Part shown: piece by piece, positions 29,084 through 56,085 of the stretch | Layout: every line of letters begins with the position of its first letter | How positions within the stretch are numbered: the first letter of the stretch is position 1 | IMG/VR virus record: IMGVR_UViG_3300025276_000005 | Location: 1-57,552 of that record | Length of the DNA: 57,552 bases | Reading direction: 5' to 3' (one strand) | DNA from: a virus | Taxonomy: Duplodnaviria; Caudoviricetes | The notes under the pieces: model-generated | Seen by the model: only the letters and a program-made list of their open reading frames with translations | Told to the model about the DNA's origin: nothing | The model's database searches: none | Translations under genes and position numbers: made by a program

Positions 29084-29740
29084 CTAGTATCCTGTTAAAA
29101 GTTTTAGTACGTCATCTATTGCTTTGTGTCTGTGGTTATCCTCTAGGATTACCTTAAACACGTGATTGCTATCCTTAATCTTGTGAACGTCATCAATCGC
29201 AGAGTTTAGCGATGAGGACAAGTCAATCTGTTGGTTATCTCCACAAAAAATCATCATCGAGTTTTTACCTAGTCTACCCAACGCCATACGTAATTGAGGC
29301 TTGGTTAAGTTTTGAAACTCATCTATTATAACAACAGCGTTGTCAAAAGTTCGTCCACGGAAGTGAGCTAGGGATACCAACTCAATCTCCTCGTTCTCAA
29401 CCATCTTCTGAATCTTCTCAGGCTTGTTGTACACCTTACGCATATTGGACATAATAGGAATAAGCCAAGGCTCTAGCTTCTCCTTCTCATCTCCGGGCAG
29501 GAAACCATTGTCCTCCGTAGCGACAGTAGGACGAGTAATAATTACCCTGTCGTACTCTCGCTTGAAGAACATATCGAGAGCCACCTGTACGGCTAAAAGA
29601 GTCTTACCTGAGCCTGCTTTGCCGACTATAAAACTGAAGGCGTGGTTTAGTATGTTCTCCTTTGCTCTTTTTTGCTCGTCTGATAAAGTTATATTAAACT
29701 TTACCTCTCCCCTAGGTGTCCTCTTTTCCTTATTAGCCAT
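29084..29740 (-). CDS. phoH: PhoH-like ATPase
   Basis: GKAGSGKT, ITRP, GFLPG, RGRTFDNAVVIIDEFQN, GDNQQIDL. Confidence 0.92.
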   Translation of the reverse strand: MANKEKRTPRGEVKFNITLSDEQKRAKENILNHAFSFIVGKAGSGKTLLAVQVALDMFFKREYDRVIITRPTVATEDNGFLPGDEKEKLEPWLIPIMSNMRKVYNKPEKIQKMVENEEIELVSLAHFRGRTFDNAVVIIDEFQNLTKPQLRMALGRLGKNSMMIFCGDNQQIDLSSSLNSAIDDVHKIKDSNHVFKVILEDNHRHKAIDDVLKLLTGY

Positions 29741-29823
29741 TACTTGTCTCTTACTTGGAAAGCACTAATGATAACTATTAAAGCTAACATTGTTATCACC
29801 ATTATTACCACGTTTACAACCAT
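29740..29823 (-). CDS. 27-aa single-pass membrane peptide
   Basis: MVVNVVIMVITMLALIVIISAFQVRDK; its TAA overlaps the phoH ATG. Confidence 0.45.
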   Translation of the reverse strand: MVVNVVIMVITMLALIVIISAFQVRDK

Positions 29824-29843
29824 AATAGTTTTCCTTGTTTTAG

Positions 29844-31451
29844 TTACTTTGTCTCGTAGCTACGTGCCATCGTTACAATCGCATTAGTGCTAAGAAGCGT
29901 GACAGCTACTGACACAGCATTTTGAAGTGCGTTCTTTGTAACCTTCATCGGGTCAATAACACCCATTGACATCAGCTTACCTCTCTTATCATTCTTTACG
30001 TCATAACCAAAACCTCTTGGCGTGTCATCGCTATACAAGTCATCATACATCAAGCCTGCGTTTGATAGTATAGTTTTAATCGGCGAGAGTAAAGACTCTC
30101 TAAGTATGTTATAAGCAGTCTTCTTCTCATCAGACCAACTTTCACTTATCGTCATAAACCTCGCTATGTTCTCAAGCGCCAATCCACCACCGGGTAGTAT
30201 ACCCTCAAGTGTAGCTGAACGTACCGCACATACAGCGTCATCAACCCTGTCAAACAACTCCTTGTGCTCTAGGTCAGTATTTCCACCAACGTATATAACA
30301 CCAACACCACCGGTAAGTGATGCTACCCTTGATAGGATAAACTCACGCTCAGTCTTTGTGCTTGAAGCAGCGTGCGCTCCGTGCAATTGCTCAACTCTCT
30401 CGTCTATATCCTCTTGAGAAACAACGTCATCGTCCTTTAATATAATCGTTGAAGCACGACCAACTATAACCTTGTTAGCTTTACCCAAGTCACTTGGCAT
30501 TATTAAGCTCAAGTCATCGCCCGTCTTCTCACTAAAGTAAGTAGCCCCAACCGATAAAGCAATGTCGTTCATTAGCTCGTGCTGCTTGTAACCAAAGTTA
30601 GGCGGCTGTATACAACATATCTTCAAGCCGTTCTTCATCACGTTTGCCGATAAGGTGTTAATCACGTTTGTCGAGCAAGGCGCAATAATCAATAGCTTAC
30701 CACCCTCTTGGATGATTGGCTTCAATACATTCTCAATCTGTAGTATGTTAGTTATCTCAGCGTCACTAACTAAAACACTAGCACCGTCAAAGATACACTC
30801 GTCCTTCTTGTGGTTGTTAATAAACAAGTTAGATGAGTATCCTCTGTCTACCTTAATACCCATTGTAGTCTCAAAGTGTGTGTCGGATGTTTGTGAACGC
30901 TCAACTGTAACGATACCATTAACGCCAACCTCTTTATACACGTTAGCTATTATGTTACCAATACTTGAGTCGTTGTTCGCTGATATAGTAGCTACACTTA
31001 CTAGAGTTTTATCTGTAACAGGTTTGCTCATCTTCTTAAGACTCTTAACAACCTCGTCAGTACCCTTTACAAGCTCTCTAAGGACCGCTGTCTTATTATG
31101 CTTATCAGTAATCATCTCGTCTCCATTTCGTACTAAGGCGTTAGATAACACGATAGCCGTTGTCGTACCATCACCGGCAGACAATGCAGTCTTCTCCGCT
31201 GCCTCTTTTACAATTCTGACTGCAAGATTCTCCACAGGGTCAAGCAAGCTAATAGATTTAGCCACCGTGACTCCATCCTTAGTAACCGTCATTCCCGATA
31301 AATGTTCTTCTGATTCGATAAGCACTGTATGACCTTGAGGACCAAGGGTGCTCTTTACTGCATTTGTAATCTTCTCTAGACCTTTGAATAATTTTACTCT
31401 ACCTTCTTGAGAGAAATGCAATTCTTTAGGAGTGTAACCTGATTGATTCAT
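29844..31451 (-). CDS. groEL: Chaperonin GroEL (phage type, no GGM tail)
   Basis: STLGPQG, VTKDGVTVAKSI, AGDGTTTA, ATISAN, EGILPGGG, GVIDPMKV. Confidence 0.95.
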   Translation of the reverse strand: MNQSGYTPKELHFSQEGRVKLFKGLEKITNAVKSTLGPQGHTVLIESEEHLSGMTVTKDGVTVAKSISLLDPVENLAVRIVKEAAEKTALSAGDGTTTAIVLSNALVRNGDEMITDKHNKTAVLRELVKGTDEVVKSLKKMSKPVTDKTLVSVATISANNDSSIGNIIANVYKEVGVNGIVTVERSQTSDTHFETTMGIKVDRGYSSNLFINNHKKDECIFDGASVLVSDAEITNILQIENVLKPIIQEGGKLLIIAPCSTNVINTLSANVMKNGLKICCIQPPNFGYKQHELMNDIALSVGATYFSEKTGDDLSLIMPSDLGKANKVIVGRASTIILKDDDVVSQEDIDERVEQLHGAHAASSTKTEREFILSRVASLTGGVGVIYVGGNTDLEHKELFDRVDDAVCAVRSATLEGILPGGGLALENIARFMTISESWSDEKKTAYNILRESLLSPIKTILSNAGLMYDDLYSDDTPRGFGYDVKNDKRGKLMSMGVIDPMKVTKNALQNAVSVAVTLLSTNAIVTMARSYETK

Positions 31452-31474
31452 TTTGTATTTGATTTGATTTGATG

Positions 31475-31482
31475 CAAATATA
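31475..31482 (-). promoter_or_regulatory. Bacteroidota -7 box for groEL; equivalent boxes at 1917, 9997, 11506, 14904, 22691 and 28366
   Basis: TAnnTTTG on the minus strand, 8-31 nt upstream of the respective start codons. Confidence 0.65.
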
Positions 31483-31505
31483 GTATTTTATATTTAATTA
31501 TAACA

Positions 31506-31680
31506 CAATGTTGGTTGTCAAGATTCTGACGCTCTCTATATATATATATATTTTTACTCTCTCTTTATATATTTATTTCACTTCAAACTAAAGTTAAAGT
31601 TAACATTGTTGTCAAAGTAATTAATAATCAAATAGTTAATATATTTATTTCAACATAAAGTCAACATAAAGTTAACATTA
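31506..31680. repeat. AT-rich element, copy A (candidate replication origin)
   Basis: Non-coding; (TA)n tract and repeated AAAGTYAACAT; shares ordered motifs with 41767-41940. Confidence 0.5.
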
Positions 31681-31695
31681 AATGTCGAGTTAAAT

Positions 31696-31721
31696 AAAAA
31701 AAAGAGGGAATTAACCCTCTT
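31696..31721 (-). terminator. Intrinsic terminator downstream of ORF 31772..31960
   Basis: AAGAGGG-AATTAA-CCCTCTT stem plus a T run on the minus strand. Confidence 0.75.
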
Positions 31722-31771
31722 CCCGAACTGAAGAACACTACTACTTCAACTCAACCATCAAACACAATGAC

Positions 31772-31960
31772 TTATCTATTAAAATAATCCTTCATATCTT
31801 TTCGCATCTCAGCTCTTTCAATACCGTCTGCTATTATATTGGTCTTCTCGTTACGCTTCATCATTTGGCGTATCTCTGCAGCTTCCTCTAAACCACTTTT
31901 GCCTACCGGACGGTCATTAATTAACCTGCCGTCTTTTACTTTTAATCCGCTGAAATCCAT
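31772..31960 (-). CDS. Hypothetical protein
   Basis: 62-aa ORF followed by a terminator. Confidence 0.6.
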   Translation of the reverse strand: MDFSGLKVKDGRLINDRPVGKSGLEEAAEIRQMMKRNEKTNIIADGIERAEMRKDMKDYFNR

Positions 31961-31961
31961 A

Positions 31962-32102
31962 TCACTTTGTTTTTATGTGTAAACTAATTAATCCTAAATA
32001 AATTATGTACTCAGTGTAGTCAAACTCCTCGTCTAAAGGGAATACAGAGAAACCTAAAACAAATCCTACACGTATTCTATTCTGTAATTCTATCTCGTAC
32101 AT
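31962..32102 (-). CDS. 46-aa hydrophobic protein (MYEIELQNRIRVGFVLGFSVFPLDEEFDYTEYIIYLGLISLHIKTK), absent from the ORF track
   Basis: Abuts the next ORF; first gene of the leftward arm. Confidence 0.55.
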   Translation of the reverse strand: MYEIELQNRIRVGFVLGFSVFPLDEEFDYTEYIIYLGLISLHIKTK

Positions 32103-32636
32103 TGGGTAAAGATACAAAAATTATTAGATACATAGAGGTGGGAGGTTATATGTCATGTGAGGCAGCTTAGCCCTCGACAGAAACCGATTTTTTTCTTGGG
32201 GGTGGGGGTTGCCTTTTCATATTTTCATATCTATTTTTTTGGCTATTTAGATACGTGCATGTACCACCCTTCAGTTGCGCGTACACATATACCTACCTAC
32301 ATTCATCTGCTCATCACATCTTAATTCATCTAGCAATCTACATAGGTATCTAGTTAGTGATTGTGTTCCACTATATACAATGTCCGCTCAAGCGGATAGC
32401 CTTAGCTAAGGCATATGCATTCATTTTAAGCGCTTCCAGGAAACGCTATTTTTGACATCCTAGCAAAACAAAGGCATACAGAGGTATGACGTTATAACTG
32501 CCCTACACAATTTACCCATAAATAATCCCTAAACCTATTCCTCCCGCAATCCCTTTGCTAGTCAGATATTGAGAGAGTGAATGTCTAAACGTCAAAATAA
32601 ACTTTACATTAATATGCAAATTAGTTATGAATTAGT

Positions 32637-32666
32637 TTTGTACTACGGATTAATCGTCTATCTTTG
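32637..32666 (+). promoter_or_regulatory. Main early promoter, Bacteroidota sigma-A type
   Basis: TTTG (32637-32640), 18-nt spacer, TATCTTTG (32659-32666), at the start of the plus-strand arm. Confidence 0.75.
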
Positions 32667-32825
32667 CTTCAGCAATGGGAAGTATTGCTCGTTCTTTTCT
32701 TACTAACTAACTGATTATCAGATGATTGTCCTCTAAAAGCCCCACGAGATGGGAAGGAAGACAAGAATATCCCTTTATTTCCTAGGGTTTCTGCTGATTA
32801 GGGTGAGAGACATAATGTGAGAGGA

Positions 32826-32886
32826 TATCGTAATGCAGCCAAGGTGGTCACAAGCCCACAACCAAAAAGGGATGCAGAGTGAGATA
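32826..32886 (+). ncRNA. Twister self-cleaving ribozyme (type P1), copy 1; predicted cut U32831/A32832
   Basis: P1 TATC/GATA; U^AA; P2 TGCA/TGCA; GC; P4 GTGG/CCAC enclosing loop TCACAAGC; GAGT. Both pseudoknots (AC/GT, GC/GC) can form. Confidence 0.88.
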
Positions 32887-32903
32887 ACAATTAAACCAAG
32901 ATT

Positions 32904-33032
32904 ATGAAAGAAAAAGATGAGTTTCCTGAAATGGAATTGTATGAACACTATTCTTTTTATGTAGAGAATTGTGTAGACGAAGATAAGGGAGAAATACCTT
33001 TAGGCTTTGACGAATGGAAAATAAACCAATAA
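32904..33032 (+). CDS. 42-aa acidic early peptide, absent from the ORF track
   Basis: MKEKDEFPEMELYEHYSFYVENCVDEDKGEIPLGFDEWKINQ, preceded by the recurring AAACCAAGATTATG start context. Confidence 0.55.
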   Translation: MKEKDEFPEMELYEHYSFYVENCVDEDKGEIPLGFDEWKINQ

Positions 33033-33053
33033 ACCAACTAAACAATAGAAATT

Positions 33054-33761
33054 ATGCCAAATCATTGCAGTAATCATTTAGAAGTAAGCGGAAGTGTAAA
33101 AGAAATGAAAAAGTTTTACGACCATTTATCATTTATCCCTGAGCAAGATCAAGAAAGTTACAATTTTGACTTTAACGACTTTATACCTATGCCTAAAAGC
33201 TTAGATATAATAGCAGGCTCTAGGGTTAATCGCGCTGTTGAAGTTTTAAACGGAGAAGCCAACATGGGTCCAGGAGGAGATTACCCTAACATTACACCTG
33301 AAGATATTGAGTTAGGTAAAACATACCTAAGCAATATGAAGAAGTACGGACATGGAGACTGGTACAGCTGGTCTAACGCTAACTGGGGAACCAAATGGAA
33401 CGCCTATGACGGTTATGCTAATTCAGTAGAAGACGACTATTTTGGAGTTGGCTTTTCTACGGCTTGGTCTCCACCAATGCCTTTATTAGCAAAAATCTGT
33501 GAGCTTTTTCCTAACCTAACTATACAAATGGAATACCAAGAAGAAGGTATGGGATTCGCTGGAGTCGCAGGATCTAATCCAGGAGAAGAGCCTTACGACA
33601 ACGAAGGTGAAATAGTTTACCTAAGTAGCTGTTGTAATAAAGATGTAAACGAAGAAGTTCACATGCAGGAGTGTGAGGACAGCGACTTAGAGAATTGGGA
33701 AATTTGCCCTAAGTGTAAAGAGGAATGCGAATCAATTAGTGAAGTAATTTATAACAACTAA
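33054..33761 (+). CDS. YubB/DUF1281-like ferredoxin-fold early protein with a Cys-rich C-terminus
   Basis: MPNHCSNHL, FNDFIPMP, WYSWSNANWGTKWNA, FSTAWSPP, YQEEGMGFAG. Confidence 0.75.
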   Translation: MPNHCSNHLEVSGSVKEMKKFYDHLSFIPEQDQESYNFDFNDFIPMPKSLDIIAGSRVNRAVEVLNGEANMGPGGDYPNITPEDIELGKTYLSNMKKYGHGDWYSWSNANWGTKWNAYDGYANSVEDDYFGVGFSTAWSPPMPLLAKICELFPNLTIQMEYQEEGMGFAGVAGSNPGEEPYDNEGEIVYLSSCCNKDVNEEVHMQECEDSDLENWEICPKCKEECESISEVIYNN

Positions 33762-33771
33762 AACCAAGATT

Positions 33772-34458
33772 ATGAACAAATTCAACGAATTATTAGCAGC
33801 AAAAAGTGGTGTAAACATCAAGAAAGTTAATACCATTAAGGGACAGATTAACAAGCTAGAGTCTAACAAGTTTGACAAGCAGATTGAGTTATCAAGAATC
33901 TGCTGCTCAGCGGAACAATGGTTTAAGTTAGCAGAAACCAAGCAACATATGAAAGATGCAGAGATTGAGATGACGATGGACAAGTTTGGAAATGATACGT
34001 TTGGATTCAAAAGAAGCCAATGGTCATTGTATAGACAAGTGGGTAACTTACTTACTGAGAAAGAAGAATTACTTGCAACATTCATCGCTGATAGAGAAGA
34101 AAAGGTAGCTAACAATGAAACCCCAAACAAATCATTAAAGGCCTTAAAGGATTGGATGATTAATGATGGTGTAGAGGAAGCAGAAGCAGAAGCAGAAGCA
34201 GAAGCAGAAGAGGAAGCAGAAGCAGAAGCAGAAGCAGAAGAAAAGACTAACTACATTGTTAGTTTTGCTATCAAAGGAGAGCATTTTGAAGATGGCAAAG
34301 GAGTTAGTATTAGAATAGCTGAAAGCGGAATTGTAGAGGGAGACATTGAAAAGATACCAAGTGGATTGAGAAAAGAGTTAGCGAAGTTATCATCTCAGAT
34401 AGCTTTAAAGCAACCAAATGCGATTGTGGAAACCAAAGGTAAGAGTGAATCAAAATAA
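33772..34458 (+). CDS. Early protein with an acidic (EA)n linker
   Basis: 228 aa; GAAGCA tandem repeats. Confidence 0.7.
   Translation: MNKFNELLAAKSGVNIKKVNTIKGQINKLESNKFDKQIELSRICCSAEQWFKLAETKQHMKDAEIEMTMDKFGNDTFGFKRSQWSLYRQVGNLLTEKEELLATFIADREEKVANNETPNKSLKALKDWMINDGVEEAEAEAEAEAEEEAEAEAEAEEKTNYIVSFAIKGEHFEDGKGVSIRIAESGIVEGDIEKIPSGLRKELAKLSSQIALKQPNAIVETKGKSESK
34174..34242 (+). repeat. In-frame hexamer tandem repeat (GAAGCA)n in two blocks
   Basis: Encodes EEAEAEAEAEAEEEAEAEAEAEE. Confidence 0.9.
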
Positions 34459-34464
34459 TCTAAG

Positions 34465-34492
34465 ATGGATGTCCGCTTAAGCGGATGTCCAT
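34465..34492 (+). repeat. Conserved hairpin family TCCGYT(N2)ARCGGA; other copies at 32381, 34827, 35641, 36533, 37579, 38688, 41344 and 48220
   Basis: ATGGATGTCCGCTTAAGCGGATGTCCAT. All copies lie in gaps between convincing genes. Confidence 0.9.
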
Positions 34493-34544
34493 TCCGTATA
34501 CAAGTGAGTGCTTGTACTGATGAGACTAAAAGGTTGAAACGGGA
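34492..34544 (+). ncRNA. Hammerhead self-cleaving ribozyme (type III); predicted cut after GUA at 34498
   Basis: Stem III TTCCGT/ACGGGA; stem I TACAAG/CTTGTA; core CTGATGA (34517-34523); stem II GAC/GTT; GAAA (34536-34539). Confidence 0.85.
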
Positions 34545-34566
34545 AATTAACTTAATACTGAGTGAT

Positions 34567-34818
34567 ATGGAAATTAAAAGAATTGTAGTAGTAATGGATG
34601 TTATTACTGAGGAAAAAACCACATTATATAATGCGTTATCTCTAGAGGATAATTTAATATCTACTATCATAACTTTAACAGAAGATAGCAGGAAAATAAT
34701 GGAATTTGCGTATAGGAATAAGGTATCAATAGACGCAAAGATTGAGAGTATACAATCAAAAAATGGTAGTATTAAAGCATATAGTCAAGCATTCGACATG
34801 ATTGCTTACGAAGGATAA
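34567..34818 (+). CDS. Early hypothetical protein (start re-called at ATG 34567)
   Basis: The longer ORF-track version would run through the hairpin and the hammerhead. Confidence 0.6.
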   Translation: MEIKRIVVVMDVITEEKTTLYNALSLEDNLISTIITLTEDSRKIMEFAYRNKVSIDAKIESIQSKNGSIKAYSQAFDMIAYEG

Positions 34819-37215: not shown

Positions 37216-37572
37216 ATGAGTAAAGAAAGAAGTTTTACAAAGGATGACGTAGTTAATGCTATGGTAACAGAGTTACGAAAAAAGTCAATATTCGTAACCT
37301 ACAAAGGTAGAAAAATGCTACCTCAAATATCTCACCACATCCCAAAGAGTATGATTAAATCAGACAACCCAATATACCTTAGATGCTACAAGAGGCTTTG
37401 GAAAGAAAGCAGAAAGATAGATAACCCAATAGAGGTTAAAGAGCCTAAAGTTAGTCCATCTGTTATTCAAAGAGAGCGTATCGTTAAATCTTCTAGCAAG
37501 GTGGTTATAAACATGAAGGATAGAGTCATTACAATAGAGGATGGCAAAGACATCAACATAAGTTATAGATAA
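37216..37572 (+). CDS. Early basic hypothetical protein
   Basis: 118-aa ORF. Confidence 0.6.
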   Translation: MSKERSFTKDDVVNAMVTELRKKSIFVTYKGRKMLPQISHHIPKSMIKSDNPIYLRCYKRLWKESRKIDNPIEVKEPKVSPSVIQRERIVKSSSKVVINMKDRVITIEDGKDINISYR

Positions 37573-37601
37573 AACAACAGAGTCCGTTCGAACGGACTCT
37601 T

Positions 37602-37665
37602 TCTTTAATGTCACTAAGGTGGTCACAAGTCCATCAATCTAAGAGTTAGAGAGACAGAGTGGAGA
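37602..37665 (+). ncRNA. Twister self-cleaving ribozyme (type P1), copy 2; predicted cut U37606/A37607
   Basis: P1 TCTT/GAGA; U^AA; P2 TGTC/GACA; AC; P4 GGTGG/CCATC enclosing loop TCACAAGT; P5 TCTAA/TTAGA; GAGT. Compensatory changes relative to copy 1. Confidence 0.9.
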
Positions 37666-37692
37666 TAATTAAAAAACAAAACAACTAAAATT

Positions 37693-38025
37693 ATGGGATA
37701 CAGAAGCGAAGTTTACATAGCAATACCAAAGGCAGATGAGTTAGAATTAGATGCTATATTAATAGAGCACCATTTATTTGGTGGAGATTACTTTACTAAA
37801 ACTAATTATTTAGGGTACGTAACCTATCATTGCCCACATCTTAAATGGCATAGTCACTATAATGATGTAAGAGCAGTAAATGATTTTATATCAGAAATCC
37901 CTCTAGATAATTTCCCAAAAGAAGGTAGATGCTTGGTGTGTGTTGGAGAGGATGATAGGATACACTCAGATATAGGAGAATATCAAGAGGTATTCAATAT
38001 ATATACTAAAGTAGAACTACAATAG
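37693..38025 (+). CDS. Early hypothetical protein
   Basis: MGYRSEVYIAI...LKW...VGED. Confidence 0.65.
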   Translation: MGYRSEVYIAIPKADELELDAILIEHHLFGGDYFTKTNYLGYVTYHCPHLKWHSHYNDVRAVNDFISEIPLDNFPKEGRCLVCVGEDDRIHSDIGEYQEVFNIYTKVELQ

Positions 38026-48219: not shown

Positions 48220-48251
48220 GAGAGTCCGTGTGAACGGACTCTCTTTTTTTT
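48220..48251 (+). terminator. Terminator between the two converging arms
   Basis: GAGAGTCCGT-GTGA-ACGGACTCTC followed by T8. Confidence 0.85.
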
Positions 48252-51200
48252 ATCTACCACTAAATTTTCCTTTGTTTCTTATACCTCTCTTAGTAGACTT
48301 ACTTTTTTTCTTCTTCTTCTTGTAATTATATAGAGCGTCCTTTTCAGCTTGCTTAGCTTTTCGTTCTATAGCCTTAGCTTTTTTCTCAGCAACTCTATCT
48401 AAGTATCCTTCAGATTCAGGACCGAATGTCTTACGCCATAGTGCTTTGTCATAACGCTTCATATCAGTCTCACTATTATACTGACCTAGCTTATCTTTCT
48501 TTATCTGAGTTTCTGATGTACCTTTAGGTCTATAAGATGAGCTTACACCAAGTACATCATACATATTTTCCTCACTAAAATCTCCTTGGAAAGCATTCGC
48601 AAGTCCAATAAACGGGTCGAACTGAACACCTAAACCAATCTCGGTTAGAGTTCTTACAGCACTACCTATTGCTTTAGATTCACCATTTTCCTTATCTTCC
48701 TTTGATAGCTTAGCTAGTTTAGTAAACTTTCGAGACACAGAACTAAACGGATTTACTACGCTATCTATTGGTCTACTACTGTTACCTCTCATCTTATTGA
48801 CTGCTTCCTCAGCAGATGCACCGAAGTAAGGAATCTGATATATAAGATTAAGACCCATCATTGCATCTTTCATCTTATCTAAAGCCTCCTCTCTATCCTC
48901 ATCCTCGCCCTTAATAAACTTAGCTATGTTAGCCGCAAGTGCGAACATAACATTTGCGACTCCAAGGTTTAATACAAGACCTCTAACACTTTTAGCTGAG
49001 GGTTTCTCGCCCTGACTTACCGACCTAAGTATGTTAGTGGTAGACTGCATCACCTTGTTCATCTGTAAAAAAACAGTACTACCGAACATAGTAAAACCAC
49101 GAACTAAGGAGTTGCTATCCATTTGTAGAGGTATCTTATCTGTACTTCTTCTTGATTGCTGAGTAGTGTTATAGTCCTCAAACTTTGCAACAGCATCAGC
49201 TTCACTCATACCATTAGCAATATCTCTATTGAAGTTAATCATATACCCCATAACACCAAGTACATCACCAAGAACAGTTGGGCTACCTGCAGCAGCTTTT
49301 AACATCCTAAAGGCTTTACTTTTCTGAGATTGAGACGCAGGTTTATATGTTACTGAGCCTGTCTCAAGACCATACACATCACCCTCTAGTCCTTTAAGTA
49401 GACGCTCTTGAAACATAGGTGATAAATTCCAAGCCTTTTTTATTTGTGAAGGCATAGTCGCTATAACTTTAGCTCCATCAACCATAAACATTAATAAGTC
49501 AAGCCCCGGTACTTTTGACTTACCCTTACCTCTGTACGAGTAATCTTCAAAAGCATTTACAAAAGAAGTGGACTGCTTAAGAATCTGAACAGCCTTGAAT
49601 GCTAGAGCAAAACCTGTGTACTTAGTCATTAACTTATCAACAAGGTTTGACTGAATAGCAGCCTTACCACCGTTAGGATTAACAGCGTAGTTGATTGCAT
49701 TCTTTACAGCCTTACCAAGACCTGTCTCAGTCAATAAGGTATTAACAGATTTGAACTTAAATATAGCATTCATCTTCTTAACCCCCTTAGCGTAACCCTT
49801 ATACCTCTCGATAGTTTCAAAGTGGTCTTGAAGAGTAGAGGTAAAATCTGAACCTCTAAGGTCTACATCACCCGTTAAATCAACCCTTTCTTTTAAGGCA
49901 GGAGCAGTCTGTGCATTAAACACACCACTAAAATCACCGTTCTCTAATAGGTCAGCGTTAACTTTAGTCTGAATAGTTTGAGTTGGAAAGTAATTATCAA
50001 CATACCCTAGGTTTACGTTGTTGACATCAGAATAAACCTCATTAGTATTCTCGAAGTACTCGGTACTTAAATACTCTACTGTCTTATCTACAAACTCAAC
50101 AACCTCTTTACCTAAGATAGATTCAATCTCTTTCAGCTTTGAATCAGTAAGACCCTGAGCGAGTAGCTTATCACGTTGAACCTTATTCTTACTAAGAGCG
50201 TAGAGTCTCATAAGTTGGTCTGCATTGAAAGAATCGCTAGATAACACACCGCCCTTAGAAGTTTTTAATCCTGTAATCTTATGAACTCCTGTGGCAAGTT
50301 TTTTCTTAATGTCCTTGTAGCTATCTATACCGTCAATGGTTTTAGCTATCTCATCCATCTTAGTACGAGTATTCTGAAGACCTTTAGTATATACACTCTC
50401 CATCTTATTAAGAGCGTTGTACACGTTTTCTGTAAAGAAAGAACCAACCTTATCAAGACCATTAGTAAGAGTACCTAGGTGCTTTAAGTTATTACCTATA
50501 GCTTGAAGCATTTTACCTACGTTGGTGTAGCTAAACTCCTTAGCGTATTTATTTATAGCCTCACCTAACCCCTTACCAAATAACTCAATACGTCTATCAT
50601 CTCTGTCAGAGTCTAGTTGATTTTTATCCTTAGGTTTACCGTCTTCAAAAAGCTCTGAGTAACCATCCTCAATGTCCTTATCAGCTTGATTCTTAGTCTC
50701 TTTAACCTCAGCTCTGAACGCATCAAGTTTTTTCTTAAGCTCCATACGACCACCTTCTTGACCTCGTTTAATATCTTCAAGTAGTTGTTCAACCTGCTCA
50801 AGACTCATATCTCTGAGCCCATCTACAGACTCGAATATCTCTGAGGCATATAGCTGAGACTTTTCTTTGTTGGTTAACTCTGAAAATTCTTTTTGCAGTA
50901 TGGTATCAATATCAGGGAATAAGGATTTCTTTATATCATCAGCATCAATCTTTACAGGCTTACCATCTATCGTTGCAAGGACTTTATTAAGTACAGCCTC
51001 CATAACCTCAAAGAACTGCTGACTATCAGCATCTACAGATTTAGTTTTCTTTGCAGACTTAGATACTCTTTTACGAATTTCAGATATTAAAGTCTTCTTA
51101 TATTTATCTTCAGACTTATTGTATACGTTAGCCATATAATCCATAAAGCTATCTATAGACACCTCGTTTAGAACATCTACCTTCGCAAACCTATTTAATA

Positions 51201-54200
51201 TCCTCTGTGCCTGACCGTTTGTTATAGAGCCTTTCTTAACTAGAGCCTTAACATTCTCAGTTATTAACTTACTAGACTCTTGTATAGCTTGCTGTGCAGT
51301 CTTAGCACCTTCTTGCAAATCTTTTAATCTCTTAGCGTATAGCTTCTTATCTGTAGTTGTTATCTCCTTACCGAAGTTGCTGTCAAGAGTTGCTTTAGAT
51401 GGTGAGGACTTTTCTTTTAGAGAAAGTTTCTTACGAACACCACGAACTAATTCCTCACGAACAACGTCTGAAGCTCTTTCATATAAAGGTGTAGACTTTA
51501 AATACTCTATAGCATTTTTAAGCAGAATTTCCTGACTAACCTTTGGTGTAATATTCTTAGGACCTTTGTTGTTGTTTTTCTTATTAGCTCTATCTTGAGT
51601 TCTCTTTATAATATCATCAATAGCGTTCTCAACCTTCTTAGAACCCGGTACTAAATCCTCGGTAACCTTAGCTTTAGGTGCTGATTTTTTATTGGTAGCT
51701 AAAACCTCTGATATTAAGTTTGATTCTACACCTTTTTGTTTAAGTAGCTCACCTATAACCACCTCAGAGTATCCAAGACCACGTAGTTTTTCTACAGCAG
51801 ACTTTACCGCTTTTTTATTAGAAGAGTCTCCTAACTCAAACCTAGCCTTGGATGCTTGAGCCTCAGCCTTTGCATCGAATTTGGTTTTAGATTTAGCATC
51901 TAAAGGTTTACCACTAAACAAGTCAGCAAGACCTGTGTTAATAAATTCATCAAGCGTTAGATTCTCTATGTCCTTTATATTGCCTTTAAACAATTCATCA
52001 GACGTAGTAAAGTTTTGTTTTATGTATTTAAAGGTAGCATTCATCCACTCCTTAAACTTAGACTTCTGAGCAGCATTAGTGATAGTCTCACCTTTAGTAG
52101 CCATAAGTTCTACTAAGGCTTCTTCTCTAGCTAACTTCGTATCACCATACTTTTCAATCGCAGCTTTTAAGGCATCAGTACCTTCAACTAATTTTAAACC
52201 ACGAGCCAAAAGAGCTGTACCTTTTTTACCTGAAGCATCTGAACGTAAGAAATCAGTCCATATATGACCGAACTCGTGTATTGGTGTAGCTAAAGAATCA
52301 AATGCAGGGTTTATAAATATCTTACCATCCTTAGTTAGACCAAGGATAGTTTTACCATTAGATTCTTGAGTTCTAACACCGGGTTGGTCTAGTATAGCAT
52401 CAAACTCAACCTGACTTGTTGCTACATTAACTGATGGGAATGCAAACTTTAATTTACCTATAAGTATGTCAAGGTTTGATTGCTTCGTTTTAGCAGGGTC
52501 AGATTGAAAAACCTTATCGTTAAAGAAAGCCCCACCAACTTGCTGTGCTGTGGCTTCTTTAGTAGGGAACTCACCTTTTTTATTTCTCTTAAAAACTCTA
52601 CTAGCCTTAGCTTTCCAAGTTGAGAATACGTCAATACCGTGTTTTGGTTTAGAGATTAAAGCTATCGCTTTACCTTTAGGTCCGAATCCATAGTTATCGT
52701 GAGAAACTTTTGTAACACCGCCTTTATCTGTAACGTCAATACCAACAACAGCAACTATATCTCCGTGTGCTCCCTTAATCATTGAAGGTTCTCCTATTGC
52801 TTTGTATATATTATCAGCAAAGAAAGCGTCTACATTAAACTTAGGGTTTCCTTCAGCTAAAGATTTTATTACAGCCCTATTATTTTTTTTAGCTCCCGGA
52901 GGATATATGATTGATTCAAACAATAACTTCCTATCATCAAGAGTTAAGGTATTCATATCACCCTTAGCTCTTTGGTTTGCTTGTTTAACAACTAAATCAG
53001 CTAACTGCCCTAGGGTTTTAATCTTATTCTTCTTAATAAATTCTTGTAGCTTAATAGCTGCAGCCACTTTCTTCTTCCCTACTGTAGATTTTTGAGAAGA
53101 AGTCTTAGCTTTATCTAAACTAACTTGTAAATCAGCTAAAGCCTTTACTTGATTCTTTTTTGGGGCAGACTTTATTGCCGGGCTTACATATCTGAATATA
53201 GCTTCATTAGAATTAATAGCACTATCAGACATTCTAGCTATAGCCATAGGTACGTGACCTTGAGGTAATTTTCCGTCATCCCATAGCTTATCAAACAACA
53301 CTTTGTTTTCTTCATATAATCTTACAGCGTTGTCAAATTGAGTTTTAGCACCATCTTCATTTACACCTGCCCAAGCGGCTTCTGTATTCTTACCTAGTAT
53401 ATTAAACATTATGCCCCCGTCAACATCCATATTGTTTCCTTGAGCATCTTTAACTGTACCGGAAGCGAGGATGTCTGACATACCTGTTAACATTGGTATA
53501 CCATCAAAGAAGTCAAGAGGCTTAAGCAAATCGTTCTCACTCTTAACACCTATAAAGTCTAGAGCTTTTTGAGTAATCTTTTTAATCGAGTTACTTTCTT
53601 TTATTGGGTTAACTTCATAATCCCTAGAAGCTCCTGATGCTTTAAACTCAATCTCATTCTTATCCATCTTATTCATCTCCTCAGTAATAGCAGATGTTTC
53701 TTGGTCTTGAGTTTCTAATCCATCTAATCTAAACCTAGGAGTAGATTCCTCTGCAACAACCTCTTCCGTTGGAGTGATTGCATCAAGCTCAGACAAGTCT
53801 ATTCTCTCGTCTGCTTCAATCGCATCTACCTCAGCTTGGACTTCCGGGCTGACATCAGATTCTTGAACTTCTTGTGTAGTCTCTGTGGTAAGTTCGCTGA
53901 CTTCGGAGTCTCCCTCTCCCACTGTTTGGCTATCTCCGGCTTGTTCTTGTACATCCACCGTCTCTGTGCTTGGCTCTTGAATGGCATCGGCTTGTTCTTT
54001 TAAAATTTGTTGTTGTTTTTCTGATATCTGCTCAGGTGTTGGGTTTATAACACCCTCCTCTGCTAATTTTTTAGCAGCAAACTCTTCAGTCACTACATTA
54101 GTTGTAGTACTAACATCGTCACCATCAACTGTAATGTCAGTCTCTCTAGCCTCACCTTCTGTGATAGGATTCTCTTGGAGATTCTTTATCTCCTCTTTAA

Positions 54201-56085
54201 TTACCTTAGCTCTATCTTTTGCAGGCTGAGTCTCGTTTGACTTTAAGTTATCCAACTCTACCTGTAGCTTTGTTATCGCATCAAGTGTTGGCTTGTTCAT
54301 GTCAGGACTAACTTTCTTTATATCTTCACTAACTATAGCTTCCTTATACTTCTCATCGTATATAGACTGAAGCTCATTGTCATTTACAATATTGACCTCA
54401 GCTTTAATTAAATCCTGAGGTGAAGCCTCTCTAATAAATTTAGCCATATCAGGACCTGTAACTCTAGCATCCTTACCCGTACCATTGATGGAGTATTTTG
54501 GTGCTTTATATAAACCATAACCCACCGTTAGTGGTGCTGTTGCTGTACCTGCGATACCTTCAAAACCAATCTCAGCAATATCCATCTCCTGACCTGCAAC
54601 CAATCGTCCACCAACCTCACCAAGCGAACCACCAACAGCTTCAACTGCACCACCTGCCGCACCTGCTAAAAGTTTACGACCTGTCATTCCTGCTACCTTA
54701 CCAACAACTTTAGTTGCTATCCCACCTGAGATAGCGTCAATAGCTCCAATAGTAAGACCACGTCCAACAGCCTTAAAACGGATGTTGTTCATCTTCTCTT
54801 GATTCCCTAAAATTTCTCTAATATTTTCTTCAGTCATCTCCTTCCCGCCAAGTTCCTCTTGTAGTAACTCAGCGTATGTAAGACCCGTCTCAAGTGTAGT
54901 ACCTGCCATTCCCATCGCACCAATAAGAGCACCTGCAGGACCTGCGATTGCTGCACCTGCCGCAGCACCACCTGCTGCACCTGCCAAGGTAGCCGGTGTA
55001 GCCATAGCACTTACTGAGGATACAAATAATTGTGGTATAACTGTAGGGTTTGCGATAACACCCTTAATGAATCCTAACCAACCTCCACCATCAGCTTGGT
55101 ATATCTTCTGAAAGTCACGCATCTCATCTGACTCACCCATAGACTGCATACGTTTCTGTGCTGCAATGAAGTCATCAATATCTTCTTGAGAAGCGTCTGA
55201 GCCTTTAGCAAACAACTCAAGTGCTTCATCTACTGAACCACCCTGTGCTTGACCTGCTGCACCCGCTCTATATAAGTCACCAAATAAATCTGTGATTTCA
55301 TTCTTACCAAATACTCTCTCAATCAAAGTGTCTTTCTCTCCCGCAACATCCTCTGTTCCTTTTGAGAAGTCAATAACTTCAGGAGTAAAGTCTGTTGGAA
55401 CAGACTCTTCGATAACACTTAAGGCTTCTTCTTTTGTTATACCGGTATCGTCAGGGTTAATACCTGTAGCTTCCATATAATCAGACTTCCAACGAGTAGG
55501 ATGGTCTTTTGATTTCAAATCTACTCCACCCTCGCCTTTACTTCCCCAATGATACATACCATCAACTTCATTAGTTTGAGGTATAATGCCTGCCTTCCAA
55601 GCACCACGATAGTCGTAGTTTGAATTGTCAATTTGAGGTTCCTCACTATAGGCTTGCTTAAACTCTTCTCTCCAAGCTACAACATTTGGGTCTGTAGCCA
55701 TCCAATTTTGAAACTCAATCTCTTCCTGCTCTGTTAGTGTAAAGTCCGTTGGAACAGACTCTTCAGTAACTTCAGGAGTAAAGTCTATTGCAACAGGCTC
55801 CTCAACTTCTTGAGTAGAAGACTCCAATAATACAGGTTCCTCCTGCTCTGTTGGTGTAATGGATTCCGTAACGTCCTCTTGAATAGTGGAAACGGATTCG
55901 TCTTTTTTTTTTAATGTAAAGTTTTCTAGAGAACCAATATCATACCCCTCTTCATTAAAGAAAGAATATAACTCCTCTCTCTTTACGTCATCAGTTAATG
56001 CAGATATAAAATTATTTAAGTCACCTAAATCGTAACCCTCTTGATTGAAAAAATCAAATAACTCTTGAGCTTTAATCTCGTCCAT
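48250..56085 (-). CDS. Giant (2611 aa) probable virion-injected multidomain protein with a zincin-like HExxH motif
   Basis: Acidic N-terminus, Gly/Ala-rich membrane-like segment, GKIFINP...TPIHEFGHIW...EEAL, long helical C-terminus; last gene of the virion arm. Confidence 0.7.
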   Translation of the reverse strand: MDEIKAQELFDFFNQEGYDLGDLNNFISALTDDVKREELYSFFNEEGYDIGSLENFTLKKKDESVSTIQEDVTESITPTEQEEPVLLESSTQEVEEPVAIDFTPEVTEESVPTDFTLTEQEEIEFQNWMATDPNVVAWREEFKQAYSEEPQIDNSNYDYRGAWKAGIIPQTNEVDGMYHWGSKGEGGVDLKSKDHPTRWKSDYMEATGINPDDTGITKEEALSVIEESVPTDFTPEVIDFSKGTEDVAGEKDTLIERVFGKNEITDLFGDLYRAGAAGQAQGGSVDEALELFAKGSDASQEDIDDFIAAQKRMQSMGESDEMRDFQKIYQADGGGWLGFIKGVIANPTVIPQLFVSSVSAMATPATLAGAAGGAAAGAAIAGPAGALIGAMGMAGTTLETGLTYAELLQEELGGKEMTEENIREILGNQEKMNNIRFKAVGRGLTIGAIDAISGGIATKVVGKVAGMTGRKLLAGAAGGAVEAVGGSLGEVGGRLVAGQEMDIAEIGFEGIAGTATAPLTVGYGLYKAPKYSINGTGKDARVTGPDMAKFIREASPQDLIKAEVNIVNDNELQSIYDEKYKEAIVSEDIKKVSPDMNKPTLDAITKLQVELDNLKSNETQPAKDRAKVIKEEIKNLQENPITEGEARETDITVDGDDVSTTTNVVTEEFAAKKLAEEGVINPTPEQISEKQQQILKEQADAIQEPSTETVDVQEQAGDSQTVGEGDSEVSELTTETTQEVQESDVSPEVQAEVDAIEADERIDLSELDAITPTEEVVAEESTPRFRLDGLETQDQETSAITEEMNKMDKNEIEFKASGASRDYEVNPIKESNSIKKITQKALDFIGVKSENDLLKPLDFFDGIPMLTGMSDILASGTVKDAQGNNMDVDGGIMFNILGKNTEAAWAGVNEDGAKTQFDNAVRLYEENKVLFDKLWDDGKLPQGHVPMAIARMSDSAINSNEAIFRYVSPAIKSAPKKNQVKALADLQVSLDKAKTSSQKSTVGKKKVAAAIKLQEFIKKNKIKTLGQLADLVVKQANQRAKGDMNTLTLDDRKLLFESIIYPPGAKKNNRAVIKSLAEGNPKFNVDAFFADNIYKAIGEPSMIKGAHGDIVAVVGIDVTDKGGVTKVSHDNYGFGPKGKAIALISKPKHGIDVFSTWKAKASRVFKRNKKGEFPTKEATAQQVGGAFFNDKVFQSDPAKTKQSNLDILIGKLKFAFPSVNVATSQVEFDAILDQPGVRTQESNGKTILGLTKDGKIFINPAFDSLATPIHEFGHIWTDFLRSDASGKKGTALLARGLKLVEGTDALKAAIEKYGDTKLAREEALVELMATKGETITNAAQKSKFKEWMNATFKYIKQNFTTSDELFKGNIKDIENLTLDEFINTGLADLFSGKPLDAKSKTKFDAKAEAQASKARFELGDSSNKKAVKSAVEKLRGLGYSEVVIGELLKQKGVESNLISEVLATNKKSAPKAKVTEDLVPGSKKVENAIDDIIKRTQDRANKKNNNKGPKNITPKVSQEILLKNAIEYLKSTPLYERASDVVREELVRGVRKKLSLKEKSSPSKATLDSNFGKEITTTDKKLYAKRLKDLQEGAKTAQQAIQESSKLITENVKALVKKGSITNGQAQRILNRFAKVDVLNEVSIDSFMDYMANVYNKSEDKYKKTLISEIRKRVSKSAKKTKSVDADSQQFFEVMEAVLNKVLATIDGKPVKIDADDIKKSLFPDIDTILQKEFSELTNKEKSQLYASEIFESVDGLRDMSLEQVEQLLEDIKRGQEGGRMELKKKLDAFRAEVKETKNQADKDIEDGYSELFEDGKPKDKNQLDSDRDDRRIELFGKGLGEAINKYAKEFSYTNVGKMLQAIGNNLKHLGTLTNGLDKVGSFFTENVYNALNKMESVYTKGLQNTRTKMDEIAKTIDGIDSYKDIKKKLATGVHKITGLKTSKGGVLSSDSFNADQLMRLYALSKNKVQRDKLLAQGLTDSKLKEIESILGKEVVEFVDKTVEYLSTEYFENTNEVYSDVNNVNLGYVDNYFPTQTIQTKVNADLLENGDFSGVFNAQTAPALKERVDLTGDVDLRGSDFTSTLQDHFETIERYKGYAKGVKKMNAIFKFKSVNTLLTETGLGKAVKNAINYAVNPNGGKAAIQSNLVDKLMTKYTGFALAFKAVQILKQSTSFVNAFEDYSYRGKGKSKVPGLDLLMFMVDGAKVIATMPSQIKKAWNLSPMFQERLLKGLEGDVYGLETGSVTYKPASQSQKSKAFRMLKAAAGSPTVLGDVLGVMGYMINFNRDIANGMSEADAVAKFEDYNTTQQSRRSTDKIPLQMDSNSLVRGFTMFGSTVFLQMNKVMQSTTNILRSVSQGEKPSAKSVRGLVLNLGVANVMFALAANIAKFIKGEDEDREEALDKMKDAMMGLNLIYQIPYFGASAEEAVNKMRGNSSRPIDSVVNPFSSVSRKFTKLAKLSKEDKENGESKAIGSAVRTLTEIGLGVQFDPFIGLANAFQGDFSEENMYDVLGVSSSYRPKGTSETQIKKDKLGQYNSETDMKRYDKALWRKTFGPESEGYLDRVAEKKAKAIERKAKQAEKDALYNYKKKKKKSKSTKRGIRNKGKFSGR

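Follow-up and report, generated by a model that had tools for sequence, protein, structure and literature searches.

Positions 32826-32886 of the Caudoviricetes record IMGVR_UViG_3300025276_000005 probably encode a minimal type-P1 twister self-cleaving ribozyme, here called twister 1, which is built from the stems P1, P2 and P4 and the pseudoknots T1 and T2, is without P3 and P5, and lies in the sense untranslated leader of an early/replication operon. The source is a complete virus record with direct terminal repeats; its full length of 57,552 nucleotides (nt) is the window analyzed here, and all coordinates refer to it. The identification of twister 1 as a member of the twister class, which was reportedly described by Roth et al. 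in 2014, is supported by a covariance-model match, a paralogue, orthologues and pair counts on 12 sequences, and the element is very probably functional.

Architecture of twister 1

Twister 1 occupies 61 nt of the plus strand. A previous reading of the letters alone (the sequence-only reading) had written it as a string of landmarks, and the plus strand at 32826-32886 agrees with that string base for base. The UA dinucleotide, the P2 stem, the 8-nt P4 loop, the two 2-base-pair (bp) pseudoknots and the GAG that it had named are all present in the sequence and in the alignment to the Rfam twister-P1 model, RF03160. From the 5' end, the P1 5' strand UAUC (32826-32829) and G32830, which faces A32882 as a mismatch, are followed by UAA (32831-32833), which aligns to the invariant UAA of RF03160 and contains the predicted scissile bond U32831/A32832. 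The P2 5' strand UGCA (32834-32837) pairs with 32873-32876, and the dinucleotide GC of loop L2 (32838-32839), the 5' side of T2, is complementary to G32854-C32855. A 4-nt junction, CAAG (32840-32843), stands at the site of the optional P3 in most twisters, and the P3 model positions are deleted there. In the alignment and the centroid fold, P4 is formed by GUGG (32844-32847) and CCAC (32856-32859), which enclose the loop TCACAAGC in DNA letters, or UCACAAGC in RNA (32848-32855). The 13-nt A-rich linker AACCAAAAAGGGA (32860-32872), which includes the conserved AAA and has no P5 hairpin, leads to the P2 3' strand UGCA (32873-32876), placed by the alignment and the pair counts, and to GAGUG (32877-32881), in which the invariant GAG is followed by U32880-G32881 for T1. 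The element closes with the mismatch partner A32882 and the P1 3' strand GAUA (32883-32886), as read from the sequence and the alignment, and a 17-nt A-rich spacer, ACAAUUAAACCAAGAUU (32887-32903), separates it from the ATG at 32904.

The helix order P1, P2, P4 with U-A between P1 and P2 is found both in the sequence and across all 68 model positions. Both pseudoknots are present as well, T1 between the P4 loop and the 3' side of loop L1 and T2 between the P4 loop and L2: the T1 pairs C32849-G32881 and A32850-U32880 and the T2 pairs G32838-C32855 and C32839-G32854 can form. All conserved nucleotides are matched, namely UAA, the GC of L2, GGUC.CAAGCCC of P4 and its loop L4, the AAA of the linker and GAG.G of L1. 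The P3 stem, which does not define the class, is absent from twister 1, and the CAAG junction stands in its place. A script check found no P2'-GAG segment upstream of the twister 1 UAA, as the permuted type-P5 form would have it, and cmscan of a 501-nt slice did not report Twister-P5 at this locus. In a published description of the class, P0, P3 and P5 count as optional elements, with P3 found in 78% of annotated twisters; the cleavage site is U-A, and T1 and T2 are defined as above (PMC6154101).

The loop of the RF03160 consensus is UCCCAAGC with GAGGG, against UCACAAGC with GAGUG in twister 1. Provided that position 3 of the loop is paired with position 4 of L1, this difference would amount to an exchange of one T1 pair from C-G to A-U. 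The same A/U combination occurs in type-P5 twisters that score above their Rfam gathering score of 37.6 (L012, 57.7 bits; L014, 57.1 bits). For loop A, the T1 partner is U in all 28 type-P1 rows retrieved and in 16/16 script-classified type-P5 matches retrieved, under a search pattern that fixed the loop sequence and left the T1 partner position free.

Covariance-model support

The entire 57,552 bases were scanned on both strands with Infernal and 4227 Rfam families, with reporting by expect value (E). RF03160 was the sole match at E ≤ 1; it covered 32827-32885 with model positions 1-68 (36.3 bits, E 2.9e-4). The same match had an E of 2.5e-6 on the 501-nt slice and of 6.8e-8 when the genome was searched with this family only. 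Outside P3, all upper-case consensus bases are matched, and 21 P3 positions are deleted. The Rfam twister-P1 search that the sequence-only reading had proposed as a check thus recovered twister 1, at a score below the gathering score of 67.2. That threshold is an operational cut-off of the RF03160 model and no property of the RNA class, and the deleted P3 positions plausibly account for much of the distance to it. Another P3-less type-P1 example (L010) scored 37.1 bits, and P3-less type-P5 relatives pass the cut-off of their own model.

Homologues and conservation of pairing

A fixed-length core pattern retrieved 4 viral contigs, all carrying type-P5 twisters, and 42 metagenome contigs. By script classification, the 42 consist of orthologues of twister 1 in 2 contigs (L102 and L113), a family around a second copy in this phage (the copy-2 family) in 24, including one cut by the contig end (L134), another type-P1 form in 1 (L123), type P5 in 11 with 12 matches, and 4 unclassified contigs (L111, L122, L127 and L130). 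The two orthologous contigs are 85-89% identical to this phage across long flanking blocks. In L113 the ribozyme is identical at 60/61 positions, against a leader in which 75 positions agree, 37 differ and 47 are gapped (Fisher p 1.4e-7 for the aligned columns). The four substitutions in L102 and L113, C32855U (which turns a T2 G-C into G-U), the two linker changes A32861G and G32871U, and A32882G, all fall outside the conserved core. A32882G is the sole ribozyme change in L113 and affects an already unpaired position, and L102 has three ribozyme substitutions, two of them in the linker.

MAFFT misaligned the 3' halves of three type-P1 sequences, and a model built from twister 1 alone was therefore used for the alignments. 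The type-P1 sequences gave 28 rows, 12 of them distinct, and 94.3% of 192 cells were paired, compared with 34-53% in slid controls; the homologue sequences behind these counts are related to one another. Double-sided changes are seen in six pairs across the 12 distinct sequences, including 3/5 P1 columns (between the copy-1 and copy-2 families) and 2/4 P2 pairs. None of 500 shuffles reached the paired percentage or the covariation score, and 11/500 reached the double-change count. Broken down by element, cells of P2, P4 and T1 were 100% paired, those of T2 96% and those of P1 83%.

The paralogue, twister 2, lies at 37602-37665 (+) and is a type-P1 twister with a P5 hairpin and a predicted cut at 37606/37607 (28.3 bits, E 1.4e-5); it ends 27 nt before the ATG at 37693. 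The covariance model from twister 1 alone recovered it with 32.6 bits and an E of 2.3e-5 in 1.63 Mb. UAA, UCACAAG and GAGUG are identical between the two copies, and the paired elements differ: P2 is UGUC/GACA in twister 2 versus UGCA/UGCA in twister 1, T2 is AC/GU versus GC/GC, and the linker is filled by a 5-bp P5 hairpin, UCUAA/UUAGA. A terminator-like hairpin at 37579-37600 (+), one of 11 copies of a conserved hairpin described below, directly precedes twister 2. The 5' arm of this hairpin, ACAGAGUC, mimics the P2'-GAG of the type-P5 arrangement. With cmscan, the slice 37450-37800 gave only a Twister-P5 match that uses the upstream hairpin (19.6 bits, E 0.07), and the type-P1 match was unlisted there. 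The type-P5 reading of twister 2 was rejected as the weaker fit, with unpaired bases between the hairpin and UAA and a mismatched T1.

Twister 2 has 23 orthologues in metagenome contigs, and these also stand directly after the hairpin. The copy-2 family alignment (MAFFT) comprises 24 sequences, 13 of them distinct, and is ungapped; all 403 of 403 cells of its 31 pairs are standard, against 31-49% in slid controls. Six pairs show double-sided changes, four in P5 and two in the upstream hairpin, where C-G becomes U-A at columns 15/24 and A-U becomes U-G at 9/30. P1, P2 and T2 change on one side only with pairing kept, and T2 occurs as AC/GU, GC/GU and GC/GC.

A strict 25-mer pattern had 0 matches in viral contigs, and a pattern scan of genome contigs gave a single match (L143) that has no P2'-GAG partner, is unclassified and gives no host link. 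blastn of 31400-34500 against the phage collection, and of the twister 1 region against the related loci gathered, returned no match. A first gapped pattern had given seven viral matches, of which L011, L015 and L016 looked like chance and L013 was confirmed neither by Rfam at E ≤ 1 nor by the twister 1 model at E ≤ 0.001. A downstream AGCAGAACG in L097 and L099, considered as a second, degenerate P2'-GAG, was rejected as the 3' strand of P5. In the unrelated viral contigs from the twister pattern, the ribozymes lie at 7070-7143 of L012 and at 1346-1411 and 1911-1982 of L014. One twister-pattern viral contig holds two twister-P5 copies about 500 nt apart, and a pistol ribozyme (53.8 bits, above its cut-off) was seen in these contigs a few kb from a twister-P5.

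Genomic placement and the presumed leader

Twister 1 lies on the sense strand in non-coding sequence, with no open reading frame (ORF) of note across it on the plus strand, and ends 17 nt before the ATG at 32904. Its placement in the 5' leader of the first gene of the plus-strand block, as the sequence-only reading had it, agrees with the ORFs, the strand switch and the skew. Plus-strand genes run from 32904 to about 48066 and include a primase/helicase and a helicase; the genes to the left of twister 1 are on the minus strand and include a GroEL-like chaperonin (29844-31451) and PhoH; and both GC skew and AT skew reverse sign near 32 kb, where the plus-strand block begins. The downstream replication genes suggest that this block is early. 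Its first ORF, 32904-33032 (+), encodes 42 amino acids (aa) with no family, and the second, 33054-33761 (+), a 235-aa protein with DUF1281_C, relatives of which (62-63% identity) are located in other viral contigs.

Upstream of twister 1, a promoter-like motif, TTTG-N18-TAtcTTTG, at 32637-32666 (+) would place the transcription start near 32672. We take this motif to fit the Bacteroidota -33/-7 promoter consensus, and it is kept in both orthologues. The presumed 5' leader, 32667-32825 (+), has no ORF of note and no unusual folding: folded alone or with the ribozyme, it was no better than shuffles (z +0.40 and +0.20). Its length would be about 160 nt if the promoter-like motif is used. The leader of L113, which is partly replaced, falls about 47 nt short of this one, and leader length is therefore not conserved; the centre of the leader is deleted or replaced there, and only 32809-32825, the 17 nt before P1, is shared by all three orthologues. 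The two orthologous contigs match this phage up to 32911 and again from 33759, so that the pair formed by the 42-aa ORF and the 235-aa DUF1281_C gene is a swapped cassette bounded by leader modules.

The best match of the primase is 71% identical and belongs to an uncultured phage, and the primase relatives in named phages infect Flavobacterium, Nonlabens, Polaribacter, Cellulophaga and similar hosts. Because these are hosts of Flavobacteriia type, a Bacteroidota host is indicated for this phage as well. Hosts of Flavobacteriia type are largely without Shine-Dalgarno initiation.

On the minus strand, 29084-31451, adjoining the divergent region, encodes the GroEL-like chaperonin (535 aa; PHROG 5725, E 2.8e-130) and a PhoH-like protein, and the related GenBank phage MW202828.1 annotates groEL and a 10-kDa co-chaperonin. 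A single 2611-aa ORF occupies 48250-56085 (-).

Hairpins, a candidate hammerhead and leader modules in the same operon

A conserved palindromic hairpin with the core GTCCG-N6-CGGA is found at 11 sites in the window (23 strand matches versus 1.83 expected): 12339, 32382, 34471, 34834, 35646, 36534, 37582, 38692, 45532, 48224 and 55744, most of them intergenic in the plus-strand block. It may be an RNA hairpin, a terminator or a DNA operator; a clear T-run is present only at 48224, and a ribozyme follows at only 2/11 sites. The early block repeats a unit composed of a stop codon, the hairpin, a AUUAAAACCAAG-like leader and an ATG. The AUUAAA(A)CCAAG motif of the twister 1 spacer also precedes several other early genes, and the leader motif AATTAAAACCAA is weakly enriched (24 occurrences versus 16.05 expected, with 5/100 shuffles reaching 24).

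A candidate type-III hammerhead, 34492-34544 (+), comes after one of these hairpins (34467-34490), with a predicted cut at 34498/34499 after GUA, CUGAUGA at 34517-34523 and GAAA at 34536-34539; it ends 22 nt before the ATG at 34567. The candidate is weak in the window (13.4 bits). Its blastn matches number 17 in 15 related loci, where the canonical GUC triplet appears and pairing is kept as stem I changes from UACAAG/CUUGUA to CACAAG/CUUGUG and stem II occurs as GACU/GGUU, GACC/GGUC and GUCC/GGAC. Hammerhead_3 was found in all 5 of the relatives tested, with 2-4 per record and up to 44.5 bits. Since the hairpin and the candidate hammerhead occupy 34467-34544, the listed ORF 34465-34818 probably starts at the in-frame ATG at 34567. 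The two classes are therefore distributed differently among the relatives tested, with hammerheads in 5/5 and twisters in 0/57; twisters were seen only in this phage and in the contigs found by pattern.

Proposed mechanism

In the reading that we favor, the nascent RNA would fold into the double-pseudoknot twister core and twister 1 would cut itself between U32831 and A32832. Cleavage would leave the non-coding leader, as the 5' product, with a terminal 2',3'-cyclic phosphate. The 3' product would be the early mRNA with a 5'-OH at A32832, which would retain 55 nt of folded ribozyme and the 17-nt spacer, 72 nt in all before the ATG at 32904. Twister 2 (cut at 37606/7) and the hammerhead (cut at 34498/9) would act in equivalent places further down the operon, each after a conserved hairpin and before an A-rich spacer and a start codon. 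Constitutive processing of a long early transcript into defined units would be the most likely role: upstream pieces would end in a protective hairpin, and each downstream piece would have a fixed, structured 5' end that carries no triphosphate and is insulated from upstream sequence. Transcription of twister 1, its cleavage, the chemistry of the ends and any effects on stability or translation are proposed here by analogy with known ribozymes.

Points against the favored reading

Several observations weigh against a functional twister at this place. A default Rfam scan of the window at gathering scores is empty, as 36.3 bits falls short of 67.2. The fold of twister 1 (-11.4 kcal/mol, z -0.34) is no better than shuffles; the centroid fold contains P1, P2 and P4, and a missing thermodynamic signal is expected for so short a pseudoknotted RNA. 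The P1 that the sequence-only reading had called short and mismatched has only 4 bp, with the G-A mismatch (G32830/A32882) adjoining the cleavage site, and the alignment marks a non-standard pair there. Only two orthologues of twister 1 were found, and one of them, L102, shows no excess of conservation in the ribozyme (58/61) over the leader (148/159; p 0.42). Because UAA, RC, AAG and GGTCACAAGYCC were set in the retrieval pattern, these columns are invariant by construction, and the type-P1 alignment (A7) was fitted to the twister 1 model, which biases its counts in favor of the structure. In the window, the Bacteroidota-type promoter motif occurs about as often as expected (2 matches versus 1.84), and a scan for sigma-70 promoters and terminators gave nothing above shuffled background. 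As to stability or translation, the precursor fold leaves the start region unpaired in any case. A look for RNA runs that cover this stretch returned none.

The distribution of the element belongs to the same side. Twister-P1 was found in 0 of 57 related phage records (0/5, 0/2 and, with RF03160 at E ≤ 0.01 on whole records, 0/50), where the 50 records are the first of 80 primase-related loci kept from at least 598 and the set of 2 also covers MW202828.1. In the equivalent divergent region of three relatives (G007, G012 and G009), no Rfam ribozyme family matched at E ≤ 1. The remaining 30 primase-related loci, searched as loci with the twister 1 model, had no twister, and neither had any of the 6 records whose loci are related through the 235-aa protein (62-63% identity); in two of these relatives (L003 and L004) the upstream context is unlike that of this phage. 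Because of its absence from the 57 records and the lack of a ribozyme in the divergent region of three relatives, twister 1 is lineage-specific and no conserved requirement of this phage family.

Alternative explanations

One alternative keeps the twister and makes it gated: base-pairing of the upstream leader with the 5' side of the ribozyme would hold cleavage back, or block it, until a signal or the state of transcription or translation changes. In a fold of 32668-32910, GAUGAUUGUCCUCU of the leader does pair with AGAGGAUAUC and covers the P1 5' strand; in L102 an A replaces the G of the pairing leader segment, so that a G-U pair becomes A-U; and the 17 nt at 32809-32825 just upstream of P1 are conserved in all three orthologues. 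Regulated cleavage has moreover been proposed for some phage hammerheads (PMC3088659). The leader fold, however, is no better than shuffles (z +0.20 and +0.40), and L113, with a ribozyme identical at 60/61 positions, lacks the stretch of leader that contains the pairing segment. Twister 2 and its 23 orthologues are without such a leader and stand directly after the hairpin. The lack of a leader fold signal and the unconserved middle of the leader therefore speak against gating by the leader, which we consider improbable.

We give about the same small weight to the idea that twister 1 is an inactive relic, in which a conserved linker between gene cassettes serves as a recombination joint in mosaic phage genomes. 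Homology indeed breaks at 32911, right after the ribozyme and the ATG, and resumes at 33759 at the leader motif of the next gene, so that the modules flank swapped cassettes; P1 is short and mismatched, the Rfam score is sub-threshold, and the twister is absent from the 57 related records. A decayed element would sit poorly with the fact that all consensus nucleotides and both pseudoknots are intact and that the substitutions in the orthologues avoid the core or keep pairing. The paralogues differ by compensatory changes, which implies that selection acts on the RNA fold and not on DNA identity, and P1 itself is reported to be dispensable for cleavage (PMC6154101). Still far less probable is that AT-rich intergenic DNA resembles a twister by chance. 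The score does fall short of the gathering cut-off and, at E ≤ 10, RF03160 also matches in 10/14 control genomes, but at E ≤ 0.01 it matches in 0/14 control genomes and 0/50 relatives, against an E of 2.9e-4 for twister 1 across the window with all families. Chance would also have to account for a second copy, 25 orthologues and pair conservation far above slid controls. A minimal, functional type-P1 twister in the early leader is thus the reading that we retain.

A broader proposal goes further and is offered tentatively, as something that we would at present rather doubt than expect: twister and hammerhead may be interchangeable punctuation cassettes between the conserved hairpin and the A-rich, Shine-Dalgarno-less leader in one marine Flavobacteriia-type phage lineage, with the cut functionally required. 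If so, the cut would free the initiation region of each cistron with a 5'-OH and leave the upstream message hairpin-capped, and mRNA stability and translation would be determined separately for each early cistron, as a natural equivalent of synthetic ribozyme insulators. The ribozyme modules also flank gene cassettes that differ between relatives.

Comparison with known systems

Neither the class of twister 1 nor its kind of context is new, and what is known of the class is unchanged by it. The role of bacterial and phage twisters is described as still undefined in PMC6765202, which reports that bacterial twisters share gene neighborhoods with hammerheads and occur near phage genes, and suggests processing of polycistronic RNA. 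In open-access text, we found no literature on twisters in Flavobacteriia-type marine phages, and the supplements of the twister discovery papers could already list relatives of this element. The points of interest are the P3-less form that escapes the Rfam cut-off, the mixed punctuation by twister and hammerhead, and the existence of relatives with and without a ribozyme. P3-less type-P1 twisters score about 36-37 bits against a cut-off of 67.2 and are therefore missed by default annotation, so that phage twisters may be under-counted. A complete 57.5-kb genome with two twisters and a hammerhead in one operon provides a compact and directly testable locus, and close relatives with the same module but with no ribozyme or one of another class provide natural with/without comparisons for mRNA stability and translation.

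Compared with the type-P1 class as modeled by RF03160, twister 1 shows the same order of P1, U^AA, P2, GC, P4 with its 8-nt loop, the A-rich linker, P2', GAG-NG and P1', and has both pseudoknots. It differs from that model, which expects P3, in its score (36.3 versus 67.2 bits), in a T1 A-U pair in place of the consensus C-G, and in a P1 of 4 bp with a G-A mismatch. The crystallized rice twister Osa-1-4 (4OJI) is likewise a type-P1 twister without P0, P3 and P5, and P1 is described as dispensable for cleavage (PMC6154101). Plant and clostridial type-P1 twisters differ from twister 1 in setting, as the latter resides in a marine phage and is known here from its sequence. The type-P5 twisters (RF02684), including those in L012, L014 and L097-L100, have the same core, UAA-UGNN-RC-NAAG-NNGG-UCACAAGY-CC with GAGUG, are without P3, and in viral contigs likewise lie a few tens of nt upstream of a start codon. 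They are, however, circularly permuted, with P2'-GAGUG and a closed P1 hairpin upstream of UAA, whereas the partner strands of twister 1 lie downstream.

A link to translation has its precedent in eukaryotic RNA viruses with cap-independent translation. PMC13725137 places hammerhead and twister motifs in the 5' untranslated regions of fungal and plant RNA viruses and reports that, in one chrysovirus, self-cleavage there is essential for translation initiation. Nothing in this phage shows such a link, and the chrysovirus makes the translation idea worth testing and nothing more.

Closer in position is the hammerhead of the haloviruses HF1/HF2 (HHphage, Perreault et al. 2011). An early polycistronic transcript of these viruses has the hammerhead 13 nt upstream of its first ORF, and the 5' end of that transcript has been mapped to within 3 nt of where the ribozyme cuts (PMC3088659). 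In both cases a ribozyme stands just before the first early ORF of a tailed virus, at 13 nt there and 17 nt here. The halovirus system differs in its ribozyme class, its archaeal host domain and its mapped 5' end, and twister 1 is compared with it by position alone. PMC3088659 also describes multiple hammerheads that flank prophage genes and may process long phage transcripts, and it reports in vitro cleavage of polycistronic hammerhead constructs of about 2 kb. In those prophage clusters, several ribozymes per operon flank single genes or short blocks of varying identity, as they do in this phage. This phage differs from them in that twister and hammerhead are mixed in one operon, and in that the ribozymes form part of a repeated module of hairpin, ribozyme, A-rich leader and ATG.

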